Positions 24,859-38,595 of a stretch of 40,000 nt of DNA are shown one piece after another. The notes beneath the pieces were generated by a model that had not been told where the DNA came from, ran no database searches, and saw nothing but the letters and a program-made list of their open reading frames with translations. The stretch is from Halosimplex rarum (GTDB lineage: Archaea; Halobacteriota; Halobacteria; Halobacteriales; Haloarculaceae), in contig NZ_CP180412.1 in assembly GCF_047715405.1 (NCBI RefSeq), forward strand, positions 4,294,341 through 4,334,340. Direction: 5' to 3'. Numbering within the stretch: position 1 is the first letter of the stretch; the number at the start of each line of letters is the position of its first letter. The translations under genes and the position numbers were made by a program.

Positions 24859-26019
24859 TTATTCAATCACTTCCGAGATACACTCCTGATCGATTGGTGC
24901 AGATGGTTCTCCATCGTCAATTGTCGCATCGAGCACCCGGCTACAGAGGCTGAGAATCTGCCGTACATTCCCCTGTGAACGCTGGAGAATATACTGGAGT
25001 CCATCCTCGGTAAACGGCTCGATACCACCTCTTGACTCATCCCGGGCGAGGTCGAGATATTCACGTACGAGACTTTGGATCTGCTCTTCTGTCATGGGAC
25101 GGAGTGCAACCTCCTGGCCGATCCGTTCCGAGAACGCATGATATTCGCTCATCACGTCCTGCCAGACCTCGGGTGCACAGCCGAAGAGCACACAGAGTCC
25201 CTGGCTGTTCTGATCCATCAGGTGTCGAATGCTGTTCAGCGTTGCTTGTTCGTCTTTCGGCGAGAGACGAGCGATACGCTCGAATTCATCGACGAACATG
25301 AACACGCCCGTATAGTCGAGATCACGGAGCATGTTCTTCAGTGCAGTGAAGGCCCGCACAGCTGTCGTATCATCGTCGATCGCGCTGTGGATCTCCATCT
25401 CCTTGCGTTGCTCGTATCTGAGTCCCTCGGCAGTGAGCCACTGCCACGCGTAGAGATTGGTATCTTCATAGACGAGATGTACGAGTGCCCGCGCGAAGTC
25501 GGCGAACTTCGTCACATCACTCAGTTGTTGGACCGCCGTCGGCACGATTTCAGAAAGGAGGACTTCGCCATCATCGATCAAATCCTCCATTGCAGACGCA
25601 CTCATCGGGTTTCGGTCAGTCTCTTCCCGCGTGACTTCAGCGAGGTATTCGTAGCTCAACTCCTGAAACCGATCGAAGCCGACGTCGTAGATAAACTCGT
25701 GGTAGATGTCGAGGAACCCCTCGCCCGGTTGGGCCACGTATCCGACGAAGACGTCGTCTCGATCCCGGACGAGCGACCGAGTGTATTTGAGGGTATGGGA
25801 CTTTCCGTTGCCGTACTTCCCGGTTACGACAAGGTGTTTCGACTTCCCCGTGCTGAGGACTGATGAGACAGTATTGCTGATCCGATCGGTGACGTGTTCC
25901 TGGCCACAGTAGATCAACGGATCATCGTTCGGGACTGGGCTGTAGGGGAACGGGTTACTCTCGAGGCCGAACTCCGAGTAGTCGCGCTGTTCGTCTGTAA
26001 TCGTGAAGTTTCCGCTCAT
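24859..26019 (-). CDS. P-loop ATPase (AAA/Orc-like 'archaeal ATPase' type), third gene of the TGT-like operon
   Basis: Walker A 'VVTGKYGNGKSHTLKY'. Walker B 'VFMFVDEFERI'. N-terminal 'ESNPFPYSPVP...YCGQEH' leader typical of this ATPase clade. ATGA overlap with the upstream gene at 26016-26019. Confidence 0.8.
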   Translation of the reverse strand: MSGNFTITDEQRDYSEFGLESNPFPYSPVPNDDPLIYCGQEHVTDRISNTVSSVLSTGKSKHLVVTGKYGNGKSHTLKYTRSLVRDRDDVFVGYVAQPGEGFLDIYHEFIYDVGFDRFQELSYEYLAEVTREETDRNPMSASAMEDLIDDGEVLLSEIVPTAVQQLSDVTKFADFARALVHLVYEDTNLYAWQWLTAEGLRYEQRKEMEIHSAIDDDTTAVRAFTALKNMLRDLDYTGVFMFVDEFERIARLSPKDEQATLNSIRHLMDQNSQGLCVLFGCAPEVWQDVMSEYHAFSERIGQEVALRPMTEEQIQSLVREYLDLARDESRGGIEPFTEDGLQYILQRSQGNVRQILSLCSRVLDATIDDGEPSAPIDQECISEVIE

Positions 26020-26897
26020 GAGTGGGTGTACGTGAGGTTGCGGTCGTGGACCGTGAGGTAGTAATACTGTTTGCCGAACTGTTCGATACCAGCCATTACT
26101 CGATCGGTGGACTGCGATGTTGAGACAAGTCCCTCATCATCGGAGAGTTCCATGGTCTTGATCCCGTAGTCTGCCTCTTTGGCACCGGTATCAACCGGCG
26201 CTCCCGATAGTTCTAGTTTTCCGACGTTCTGCTGTGCGAGTGACCCGAGTGCTTCGTCGAAGGCATCGCGTGTCGCACCAAGGCGGCTACAGAGTTCTTC
26301 ACGCACCTCGGGGATCGAGAGATAGCGCTGTCGCATGCCCACTCCAGCGGTCTCTTCGAGGTCGTCGTAGACCTGGAGGAGCGCGTACTCGAACGTGTTT
26401 GGGATGTTGTCTTCTTCCGTTACGTAGTACTCGCCGGTGAACGCGTTGCGCTGTAACACACCGAGCCGTCCTGCCCAGTCGCCGAGCACCTCGACACTGG
26501 CCTGATTGTAGGTGTACGGGCTGAACTCAGCACTGGCTTCGAGTTCCGTGAGCGTCTCCTCAAGCGTGATCGGGCCCTCAGATTCAACGACGTCGATGAA
26601 CGCGCCGTAGTGAGGACTCCGCGTCTCGAGAATGGAACTCACTCGGAACCAGTCTTCAGTCCGAATCGCCTCGACGAACGATTCACCGACAGCGGTACAT
26701 TCGTACAAATCATCGTCGGATTCTTCGAGGAGTGCGATACGGGAGGCTTCGAGGATAGCTGAGCGAGCTCGTCGATGGCTGACGTCAAGTTTCTCCTCGA
26801 TATCTTCTGTCGTCTGCTGTCCGTCGCTACAGAGATGCGCTACCTCGACGAGTCGTGCGAGCGACACCGGCCGGACAGTCGGTCGCTCGTCACTCAT
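26016..26897 (-). CDS. Multi-domain wHTH-like protein, middle gene of the TGT-like operon
   Basis: N-terminal 'LARLVEVAHLCSDGQQTTEDIEEKLDVSHRRARSAILEASRIALLEE' looks like a winged helix, with a second helical/wHTH-like region near residues 200-230. ATGA overlaps occur at both ends (26016-26019 and 26894-26897). No family recognised. Confidence 0.7.
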   Translation of the reverse strand: MSDERPTVRPVSLARLVEVAHLCSDGQQTTEDIEEKLDVSHRRARSAILEASRIALLEESDDDLYECTAVGESFVEAIRTEDWFRVSSILETRSPHYGAFIDVVESEGPITLEETLTELEASAEFSPYTYNQASVEVLGDWAGRLGVLQRNAFTGEYYVTEEDNIPNTFEYALLQVYDDLEETAGVGMRQRYLSIPEVREELCSRLGATRDAFDEALGSLAQQNVGKLELSGAPVDTGAKEADYGIKTMELSDDEGLVSTSQSTDRVMAGIEQFGKQYYYLTVHDRNLTYTHS

Positions 26898-38400: not shown

Positions 38401-38595
38401 TCTGAGAGTTCGCGAAACCAGAACCTCCGTTTTCCCACTCCCGGGACCTGCTGCCAGTTGAAGCGGTCCACCGCTGTCGCGAATCGCTCTGCGTTGGGCG
38501 TCGTTGAACGACCACCTGGGGTCGTCGAAGCGTTCTCGATTTGCCGCTTCGAGCAGCTCGAAAAACGTGGACTCGTTAAGTGGGATATCCGACAT
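35452..38595 (-). CDS. UvrD/Rep-type SF1 helicase fused to a C-terminal Cas4/RecB-type PD-(D/E)xK nuclease with a 4-Cys cluster
   Basis: Walker A 'AAGPGSGKTEVL'. Motif II 'VLVDEYQDTNPLQ'. 'VVGDDDQALYRFRG', 'MTVHQAKGLEFPVVF' and 'RRFYVAYSRAEEDL'. Nuclease: 'YRRCKRQY', 'GVVDVL...IWDYKAG', 'QLKTYAELY' and 'CAECDIRWSC'. Confidence 0.9.
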   Translation of the reverse strand: MSDIPLNESTFFELLEAANRERFDDPRWSFNDAQRRAIRDSGGPLQLAAGPGSGKTEVLVSRTLRLLLVDEVPPGSIFLTTFTEKAAQSLEERIIDRLETLGFGDVIDANELRIGTLHSLCNDVMQEYRYPDYANVELLNEDGQQLFMCDNCTFVDYLRGSELDTDEWATLPDEGVETSDDWTFFDEIFGWKVSRQYGPNKWQSTSGAAKLFDRISQYRAPTERLKDHDERAWRICAEGLEKYRETLRENQRCDFSRLLERFIEFLDHDTGQRFVHGDADRDRPPLQHVLVDEYQDTNPLQQALYFQLLEEMEEPNVTVVGDDDQALYRFRGGTVECLIQFPDRIRDRFDTAVETIQLKRNYRSTADIMSWCNRYVGEHPQMQAAGARAPDKESMEVARESTDGIESVRAILEGNSDGESAAVAAELVEKLYDTGYIDDYSQVAFLFKSTKENSNWTGPFVEALRERDIPVHNPRNKAFLDHPEIQFALGAIIRCIDPDLDALEKRSIQGGVRTQIEDWYDGFDAYVDEYDATALDRYVDQIGREITEADEGDSLGLNLLDLFYRILSFDPFLTWIESQAEPARGKRLGRLSKLFDSFVSVTGRSTLSPSSWADSVSTNFLTDFYYLFCGYLDATDFDEPEDPHDQIPEGFVQVMTVHQAKGLEFPVVFTSDLDSEPWTFGGTYWIEEELAPYADISPLGDETERSIRDEIRRFYVAYSRAEEDLFLLDREDAPTDLALGYRDGDPLPVDWFEGSRRIDDASAFEVDGTVGEHRDVELKRRFSITGDVLAYRRCKRQYGYYTDMDFAPNHVTQLFFGRVVHETLDRAHRHHAGELDGTSEGDMPTEGDIERYFREVAEALKARNIYPMSEEAERAALEYITRFNLREGADLYPRVEDTEHRLQSNREDFVLEGVVDVLVGDDEGREIWDYKAGQRPSEGRELDDYRAQLKTYAELYRYRRGSYPDRGVIYFLGEEDRDHARFELTFDDDTVQDSLGDFERTVSDILKDRENKNWFDITEAERPSDGTCAECDIRWSCPARPEYSLED

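Follow-up and report, generated by a model that had tools for sequence, protein, structure and literature searches.

Within a 40-kb window of the 4.59-Mb contig of Halosimplex sp. TS25 (the window being the whole stretch of DNA analyzed), a cluster of eleven genes at positions 24859-38595 is predicted, with considerable confidence, to modify DNA with a 7-deazaguanine. As a whole, it is best explained as an archaeal system that is self-contained, related to the bacterial Dpd restriction-modification (R-M) system, and located on an integrated plasmid-like element, a reading that we consider probable. All eleven genes that a sequence-only reading had placed in this region were recovered at the same coordinates in an open reading frame (ORF) map and in family scans. 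Its central proposal, an archaeal Dpd-like system for DNA 7-deazaguanine, held up: the cluster encodes a member of the DpdA equivalog that keeps the catalytic aspartates and the zinc site and is fused to a DpdC-related domain.

The dpdA fusion gene (28324-31236, minus strand) encodes a protein of 970 residues that reached 267 bits against the NCBIfam DpdA equivalog NF041059 (cut-off 200) and matched the PADLOC DpdA model at 3.5e-70. Its sole PDB match was the DNA-guanine transglycosylase DpdA of Salmonella (7UI4, 5.5e-39). The two proteins aligned in three segments, revealing two large insertions and a C-terminal extension of ~380 residues in the Halosimplex protein. The DpdA domain spans residues 1 to ~595, with the insertions at ~132-226 and ~378-536, and is followed by an alpha/beta linker domain (residues ~595-732) and by DUF6884 (residues 737-970, 234 residues). 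The essential residues of Salmonella DpdA have been identified (Gedara et al., 2023). D89, D124, and D337 of the Halosimplex protein correspond to Salmonella D95, D130, and D256, and the CxCxxC...H zinc site is kept. The start codon is GTG, in agreement with the N-termini of the homologues (MRFYVPEWDD). We rejected the longest ORF of dpdA, with 1123 codons, as spurious, because the 152 extra codons (upstream part 31237-31695) are non-acidic and occur in none of the homologues; this extension also overlaps the gene of the accessory protein p413, described below. A TATAAG element lies ~40 nt upstream of the GTG, inside a 130-nt divergent intergenic region. A tblastn search of 50,697 phage records returned one weak, partial DpdA match and none from haloviruses.

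The fusion of the large transglycosylase (TGT) to a YaaA-like domain, already noted from the sequence, agrees with the DUF6884 part of the 970-residue protein. According to the Pfam curators, DUF6884 is related to the YaaA/DUF328 (DpdC) family and carries CxxxK and LSAxxG motifs. The CxxxK and SAGFG motifs are invariant in the DUF6884 domains of the homologues. The PADLOC hidden Markov models (HMMs) for DpdC matched the domain over the N-terminal third of the model (1.3e-9), and hhalign of the DUF6884 family profile against the verified Enterobacter DpdC gave an E value of 1.2e-4, with LYxG, SAGxGL, and PYxxTF shared. Foldseek against the PDB with an AlphaFold2 (AF2) model of the domain (pLDDT, predicted local distance difference test, 84) did not recover YaaA. 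DpdA and DUF6884 are encoded by two separate genes in Natrinema hispanicum, and in cyanobacteria and Paenibacillus the domain is fused in reversed order, at the N-terminus of DpdA. By the Rosetta-stone argument, this combination of fusion, fission, and reversed-order fusion suggests that DpdA and DUF6884 work jointly. We conclude that the 970-residue protein is, as judged from its predicted domains, a true DpdA fused to a DpdC-related domain.

The second TGT, here called TGT2 (26894-27928, minus strand, 344 residues), matched the Pfam TGT family at 1.2e-30 and contains only the catalytic (beta/alpha)8 and zinc domain. It scored 145 bits against NCBIfam TgtA (cut-off 350), 47 against ArcS (cut-off 440), and 39 against DpdA, while the large DpdA fusion had no TgtA match whatsoever. 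Pfam detected a PUA domain in neither TGT, and TGT2 also lacks C1 and C2. The closest PDB match of TGT2 was the catalytic domain of ArcTGT (1IQ8, 7.6e-21), relative to which it keeps the aspartates of the DSGG, DVP, and FDS motifs and the CxCxxC...H zinc ligands. By these features, TGT2 is predicted to be a TGT that is catalytically intact but has no PUA. Its family is of constant length (344 residues), and with 73-90% identity TGT2 is the most conserved of the four core proteins defined below. Bacterial counterparts matched TGT2 at 1e-17 to 1e-18. The proposal that neither TGT is an archaeosine enzyme was supported by the lack of PUA, the TgtA score of TGT2, and the DpdA equivalog membership of the large protein.

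TGT2 is encoded in a minus-strand operon with p293, a protein of 293 residues (26016-26897), and a P-loop ATPase of 386 residues (24859-26019), which comes last. The operon is translationally coupled, p293 overlapping each of its neighbors by 4 nt. The AF2 model of p293 (pLDDT 81) consists of three tandem winged helices, and its best Foldseek matches were RPC62, the FokI recognition domain, and the winged-helix array of SelB; p293 is presumably the DNA-recognition subunit. The sequence-only reading was correct in describing a winged helix-turn-helix (wHTH) protein coupled to an ATPase, but not in assigning it a single wHTH. The ATPase, previously taken as Orc/AAA-like, belongs instead to the BrxC/BrxD family (Pfam BrxC_BrxD 2.9e-16; NCBIfam BrxD 42.9 bits, cut-off 350), and its ORC-CDC6-like match is weak. 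Its Walker A (GKYGNGKS, residues 67-74) and Walker B (FMFVDE, residues 240-245) motifs are intact. We found no similarity of p293 to bacterial DpdG, DpdB, or DpdC or to the neighboring proteins in Paenibacillus and cyanobacteria, and no resemblance of the ATPase to DpdB, DpdG, or the neighbors in the bacterial variants. None of the eleven proteins matched DpdB/ParB models of PADLOC, NCBIfam, or Pfam, and blastp and HMM comparisons with Enterobacter DpdB were likewise negative.

The genes queD (32752-33213, PTPS match), queE (33217-33984, radical-SAM/QueE models), folE (33987-34604), and queC (34597-35289) lie on the plus strand and, by family assignment, cover the route from GTP to 7-cyano-7-deazaguanine (preQ0). 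As had been claimed, they form a tight operon, with gaps of 3 and 2 nt followed by an 8-nt overlap. QueC (TIGR00364, 181 bits, cut-off 150) and FolE (NF006826, 166 bits, cut-off 162) both scored above the NCBIfam cut-offs. Most archaea use FolE2; the island uses FolE. The operon and the p413 gene diverge from the dpdA fusion gene. The operon is not flanked by the two TGT genes, as had been thought, since both lie on the same side of it. No match to queF, arcS, or Gat-QueC was found among the eleven proteins, as previously observed. A haloviral origin of the que genes was considered and rejected: the best viral QueC matches came from Bacillus phages, at 45% identity. Of 54 related loci whose upstream flank spans at least 5 kb, 25 have the complete que operon, 10 have part of it, and 19 lack it. 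The preQ0 operon is an optional supply set and probably not a housekeeping one.

We tabulated 97 related loci by tblastn from genomes, PLSDB plasmids, and metagenomes. A single-protein scan of genome contigs gave four loci, and an alignment-based metagenome scan together with PLSDB supplied more. Of the 54 loci that retain at least 4 kb of flank downstream, 53 have TGT2, a p293 homologue, and the ATPase after DpdA, which bears out the conserved gene neighborhood for which the sequence-only reading had proposed a check. The conserved synteny in ~100 related loci excludes chance, and DpdA, TGT2, p293, and the ATPase are the invariant core. Many plasmids carry this core, and the cluster is patchily distributed and found in defense islands.

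A p293 profile search against 1.84 billion representatives yielded 119 clusters, including metagenome-assembled genomes (MAGs) of Nitrososphaeria and Odinarchaeota. Four such distant loci (L104, L105, L106, and L107) were analyzed by tblastn and a fifth (L108) from gene calls. The distant archaeal loci are non-halophilic, with a guanine-plus-cytosine (GC) content of 36-60%, and the L104 proteins are non-acidic. All four core genes have orthologues there at 27-42% identity (ATPase 32-41%). The L104 genes follow each other on one strand, with gaps of at most 193 nt, in the order TGT, p292, ATPase, DpdA, OGG-like glycosylase, UvrD, and PDDEXK. The gene for an OGG/HhH-type DNA glycosylase also lies between core and effector genes in L105 and L107, and in all three of these loci a QueC-QueE fusion with FolE2 (GCHY-1) takes the place of the haloarchaeal que set.

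The architecture is not undescribed, as had been supposed, since two published accounts concern loci with the same core. Hutinet (2019) suggested the host DpdA of Haloarcula vallismortis as a possible modifier of virus HVTV-1, and the H. vallismortis locus is the same system (PLD, queC-folE-queE-queD, DpdA-DUF6884, TGT, p298, and ATPase). In September 2025, haloarchaeal Dpd-like systems received the name BRIGADE (types I and II) in a preprint on YprA helicases, which defined them by one or two YprA helicases, DpdG-like and DpdHI/BrxC-like proteins, a PLD (occasionally PD-(D/E)xK) nuclease, and a deazaguanine cluster (bioRxiv 10.1101/2025.09.15.676423). The type II representatives WP_226013624 and WP_226013625 are encoded on plasmid NZ_CP084465.1 (bioRxiv 10.1101/2025.09.15.676423), where the four core genes of the window recur at 67-84% identity. 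The window shares with BRIGADE the modification core, the kind of que cluster, and the haloarchaeal host. However, the YprA, DpdG/HI-like, and PLD proteins of BRIGADE have no counterpart in the window, whose PD-(D/E)xK candidates are a UvrD fusion and the p413 motif and whose BrxC/D-like ATPase is part of the modification operon. The work in the preprint is computational; DpdA is not named in its text, nor Halosimplex in its supplements (bioRxiv 10.1101/2025.09.15.676423). The text gives no separate account of the two TGTs, the DUF6884 fusion, or the TGT2-p293-ATPase trio. Furthermore, BRIGADE was reported from halophilic archaea only, whereas the core is found here outside the halophiles as well.

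The candidate for a restriction enzyme in the window is a protein of 1047 residues (35452-38595, minus strand) with matches to Pfam UvrD-helicase (1.9e-50), UvrD_C, and PDDEXK_1 (6.9e-18) and cysteines in a Cas4/AddB-type pattern (C794...C1028-x2-C1031-x5-C1037). This agrees with the proposed fusion of a UvrD helicase to a Cas4-like nuclease: the protein is a superfamily 1A (SF1A) helicase joined to a Cas4/AddB-type PD-(D/E)xK nuclease with predicted iron-sulfur cysteines. As had been stated, the window contains neither DpdB nor the SNF2/PLD set, according to PADLOC profiles and tblastn. Specifically, tblastn found no YprA, PLD, or DpdG/H/I homologue in the 40 kb, both YprA proteins of NZ_CP084465.1 gave no match there at E<=1e-3, and the PADLOC Dpd matches in the window were DpdA and DpdC only. 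The closest relative in culture, L005, likewise has no YprA, PLD, or DpdG/H/I homologue within 10 kb.

Among relatives of the window, the restriction genes vary. A DpdJ-like YprA and a DpdK-like PLD are usual in haloarchaeal relatives, and BRIGADE-type restriction genes occur in 27 of 34 well-flanked loci. Other helicase and nuclease sets near the core are AddAB-like pairs and an Mre11-Rad50-NurA-HerA operon directly upstream of dpdA. The latter (L052, 2262-9926; L034; L003/L004) occurs in the closest metagenomic relatives of the window and, at 80% identity, also in Natrinema hispanicum, although the DpdA proteins there are far more divergent. This operon resembles a mobile module for end resection that has come to join the core repeatedly. 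The closest relatives, L019 and L049 (77% DpdA identity), have PLD and YprA beside queC, in exactly the place taken by UvrD in the window, and L027 has UvrD between the core ATPase and DpdG/H-like genes. In L104, L106, and L107, three of the four distant loci analyzed by tblastn, UvrD and PDDEXK_1 are split into neighboring genes that adjoin the core and share 29-42% identity with the fusion protein of the window (E 1e-60 to 1e-98). L105 has PLD and YprA instead of UvrD, and L108 has HerA, PLD, and a BrxC/D ATPase. The L105 contig, with core, PLD, and YprA, has a GC content of 43%; on this evidence, BRIGADE-like systems may not be confined to halophiles. Together, the linkage in the distant loci, the slot in L019 and L049, and the position in L027 identify UvrD-Cas4 as a conserved alternative partner of the core. 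The idea that it stands in for the missing Dpd effectors gained support from the distant orthologues, and whether UvrD-Cas4 acts as the predicted effector of the cluster appears to us evenly balanced. The best reading of the window is that of a UvrD-type variant without YprA, which falls outside the defining feature of BRIGADE but has its modification machinery in common.

The bacterial Dpd system (Salmonella Montevideo dpdA-K; Thiaville 2016; Yuan 2018; Gedara 2023) shares with the window the catalytic aspartates and zinc site of DpdA, a DpdC-related domain, the reliance on preQ0, the location in a genomic island, and a restriction logic of helicase plus nuclease. In contrast, its DpdB (a ParB/DGQHR ATPase) and DpdD-K have no match in the window, which has a fused DUF6884 in place of DpdC, preQ0 genes inside the island, and an archaeal host, and which adds a second TGT, a triple-winged-helix protein, and a small BrxC/D-type ATPase. 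The "different parts list" had been regarded as archaeal. This was not upheld, since plasmids of Paenibacillus sp. 37 (pART37, L103), Nostoc NIES-3756 (L102), and Picosynechococcus PCC 73109 (L099) have a variant that lacks DpdB and combines a DUF6884-DpdA with a further, small TGT; the literature that we searched contained no account of this variant. The pART37 variant includes a queE-queD-queC operon, a VUT transporter, DpdJ, and DpdK. The bacterial variant resembles the window in its DUF6884-DpdA fusion, its lack of DpdB, its que genes, and its DpdJ/DpdK or helicase/PD-(D/E)xK partners, and its small TGT (~307 residues) is the best bacterial match to TGT2. It differs in that DUF6884 is N-terminal, that DpdA lacks the haloarchaeal insertions, and that no homologue of p293 or the 386-residue ATPase was detected, TGT2 being flanked by DEAD helicases or DpdG/H-like genes. 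The DpdA1-4 modules of phages and archaeal viruses (Hutinet 2019; Cui 2023) likewise combine preQ0 genes with a DNA transglycosylase, and their outcome is the post-replicative exchange of G for a deazaguanine that we propose for the window. However, they are anti-restriction devices in virions, whereas the window DpdA is of the cellular (bDpdA-like) type, its core is coupled to nucleases and helicases, and no virion genes were seen in the window.

On the basis of these comparisons, we propose the following mechanism. FolE, QueD, QueE, and QueC, if their family assignments hold, would convert GTP to preQ0. The DpdA domain would then exchange guanine for preQ0 in double-stranded DNA, with D89 as the likely acid/base and D337 as the likely nucleophile; we infer this from the equivalog membership and the conserved catalytic residues. 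DUF6884, in which a Cys/Lys pair is conserved, probably adds water to the nitrile and so yields dADG (2'-deoxy-7-amido-7-deazaguanosine). Salmonella DpdA requires the ATPase activity of DpdB (Gedara 2023). Since DpdB is absent here, the TGT2-p293-ATPase trio most likely fills the helper role, as its invariant linkage to DpdA suggests. TGT2 could be the second subunit of an obligate TGT dimer or a second transglycosylase, p293 would recognize the site, and the BrxC/D-type ATPase would supply the energy. The deazaguanine mark would denote self, and the restriction arm would be modular, usually consisting of YprA and PLD as in BRIGADE. In the window, the UvrD-Cas4-like helicase-nuclease would unwind and degrade unmarked DNA, a step suggested by its conserved linkage across distant archaea.

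Two further genes complete the cluster. The first (28037-28327, plus strand) lies between the TGT2 operon and dpdA, divergent from the former and convergent with the latter, and encodes a small wHTH regulator of 96 residues (Pfam HTH_27, 5e-7; HVO_A0261_N; PADLOC CasR/Csa3 wHTH, 1e-5) that is similar to the Csa3/CasR wHTH but has no CARF domain. It occupies the same place in about half of the related loci and in the distant L108. The slot between dpdA and this gene harbors an EVE protein, a PUA-like reader of modified bases, in Haloarcula sinaiiensis pHsi139 (L011, 11576-12049) and a restriction endonuclease in L013 (8256-9110), which suggests a hot spot for modification-reading accessories. 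The second gene (31367-32608, plus strand) encodes p413, a protein of 413 residues without a Pfam, NCBIfam, PADLOC, or PDB-profile match. An alignment of ten sequences showed invariant P64-D65, E93-A-K95, and Q112, a PD...ExK nuclease-like pattern in the N-terminal part. The previous description of p413 as a PD-(D/E)xK protein is consistent with the motif PD65...E93-x-K95, but not backed by profile or PDB matches. It is an accessory protein that occurs in roughly a third of the well-flanked loci and is absent from the distant ones; its designation as a nuclease-type effector was not sustained.

The surroundings of the cluster resemble an integrated plasmid. They include genes for a family B DNA polymerase (PolB, 7133-9466), a protein with Mrr_cat and an MCM winged helix (9939-11705), a ParA-like protein (13484-14167), Orc1/Cdc6 (22621-23649), and an ArdC-N plus M78 peptidase protein (23750-24835), as well as TFIIB (TFB) at the right edge of the window (39439-40000 region). 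ArdC, TFB, UvrD, and p413 are common to the window and plasmid NZ_CP084465.1. The GC fraction falls to 0.43 at 16-17 kb. No tRNA genes, integrase, Rfam families, or convincing att repeats were found in the window. A gene for an abasic-site-shielding peptidase of the SRAP/HMCES/YedK type (19474-20163, plus strand; Pfam SRAP 4.6e-67) lies 5 kb from the base-exchange genes and immediately upstream of a gene for a GmrSD-type (DUF262/DUF1524) type IV restriction enzyme (20320-22440, plus strand), which targets modified DNA. The SRAP protein might shield abasic intermediates, or its placement might be a coincidence. DUF262/GmrSD genes recur next to the Dpd-like core in L009, L012, L016, and L021. 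A 36-nt direct repeat of 89% identity (9430-9465 and 19311-19346, 9.9 kb apart) lies with one copy at the PolB gene's 5' end, while the second copy precedes the SRAP gene. A promoter or leader used by both genes could account for the repeat, or the copies could mark the two ends of an insertion.

Several observations weigh against a self-contained Dpd relative with UvrD-Cas4 as its restriction arm. The role of TGT2 is wholly inferred, and both TGTs are predicted to be active, which a simple heterodimer of a catalytic and a non-catalytic subunit does not explain. His181 of Salmonella DpdA is replaced by Gln in the window DpdA, as in tRNA TGTs, so that the base specificity may differ. A paper of July 2026 lists DNA deazaguanines solely for bacteria, phages, and archaeal viruses. 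UvrD-PDDEXK orthologues are rare in haloarchaea, being found in the window, in L005, L015, and L027, where they adjoin the core, and in L013, where the gene lies ~8 kb from it. In L013, UvrD pairs with TFB as in the window and a full YprA/PLD set is also present. On this evidence, UvrD-Cas4 could be a plasmid-backbone or repair gene. Finally, the window extends only 8.7 kb beyond dpdA on that side, and YprA and PLD could sit outside it.

The last points lead to an alternative that we regard as unlikely, namely that the window holds the modification and preQ0 half of a standard BRIGADE system, with restriction genes elsewhere in TS25 and UvrD-Cas4 as an unrelated backbone or repair gene. It is favored by the high share of well-flanked loci with BRIGADE-type restriction genes (27 of 34), by the short flank beyond dpdA, and by NZ_CP084465.1, whose restriction module lies ~15 kb from the core, across the origin, and which has the divergent TFB-UvrD pair, ArdC, and Orc1 as backbone genes in common with the window. 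However, YprA, PLD, and DpdG/H/I are missing from all 40 kb and from the 10-kb surroundings in L005, and in three of the four distant loci UvrD and PDDEXK_1 are linked to the core with YprA lacking in the flanks. A second alternative, quite improbable in our view, is a modification-only orphan module by which the element hypermodifies DNA to escape restriction by its host or by rivals, while the adjacent helicase-nucleases repair nicks or abasic sites left by base exchange. The plasmid-like element with its ArdC-type anti-restriction and Orc1 genes, the nearby SRAP protein, and the recurrence of end-resection machines (AddAB-like, Mre11-Rad50-NurA-HerA) beside the core would fit such a module, as would the precedent of phage DpdA/preQ0 modules and the several loci without recognizable restriction genes. 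Conversely, the DpdA is of the bacterial R-M type recognized by NCBIfam and not of the phage DpdA1-4 type (with the one weak phage match), most relatives are coupled to YprA and PLD like the restriction arm of bacterial Dpd, and virion genes are absent. A housekeeping archaeosine (G+) tRNA pathway with a split or atypical ArcTGT/ArcS pair, to which the likeness of TGT2 to the ArcTGT catalytic domain, the common substrate preQ0, and the production of G+ tRNA by Halobacteria might point, was rejected as highly implausible, because both TGTs lack the tRNA-binding domains (C1, C2, and PUA) and widely miss the TgtA and ArcS cut-offs, the large paralogue being a DpdA equivalog in a patchy, often plasmid-borne cluster of mobile defense islands whose que genes are frequently absent or partial.

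A self-contained archaeal Dpd relative thus remains our preferred reading. Bacterial, phage, and archaeal-virus DNA is known to contain 7-deazaguanines, which have not been found in archaeal cellular DNA. The island and its ~100 relatives provide cultivable test cases, among them Halosimplex TS25, Haloarcula vallismortis, Halobacterium salinarum, and Haloferax plasmids. They pose the question of how preQ0 is inserted into DNA without DpdB, and why two intact transglycosylases always pair with a triple-winged-helix protein and a small ATPase. A survey centered on YprA, of the kind that led to BRIGADE, would miss the UvrD subtype. In its widest form, which we hold to be doubtful and put forward tentatively, the proposal would be a DpdB-independent, two-transglycosylase hypermodification machine across Archaea (Halobacteria, Nitrososphaeria, and Asgard MAGs), with bacterial cousins; in the UvrD subtype of the window, its mark would gate the helicase-nuclease as a Chi-like signal of self. 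If true, an AddAB/RecBCD-like nuclease gated by a deazaguanine without YprA or PLD would represent a restriction principle undescribed for any R-M system. The core couples to arms of YprA plus PLD, UvrD-Cas4, AddAB-like, Mre11-Rad50-NurA-HerA, and HerA plus PLD type, and this variety makes it suited to asking how different nucleases read one epigenetic mark.

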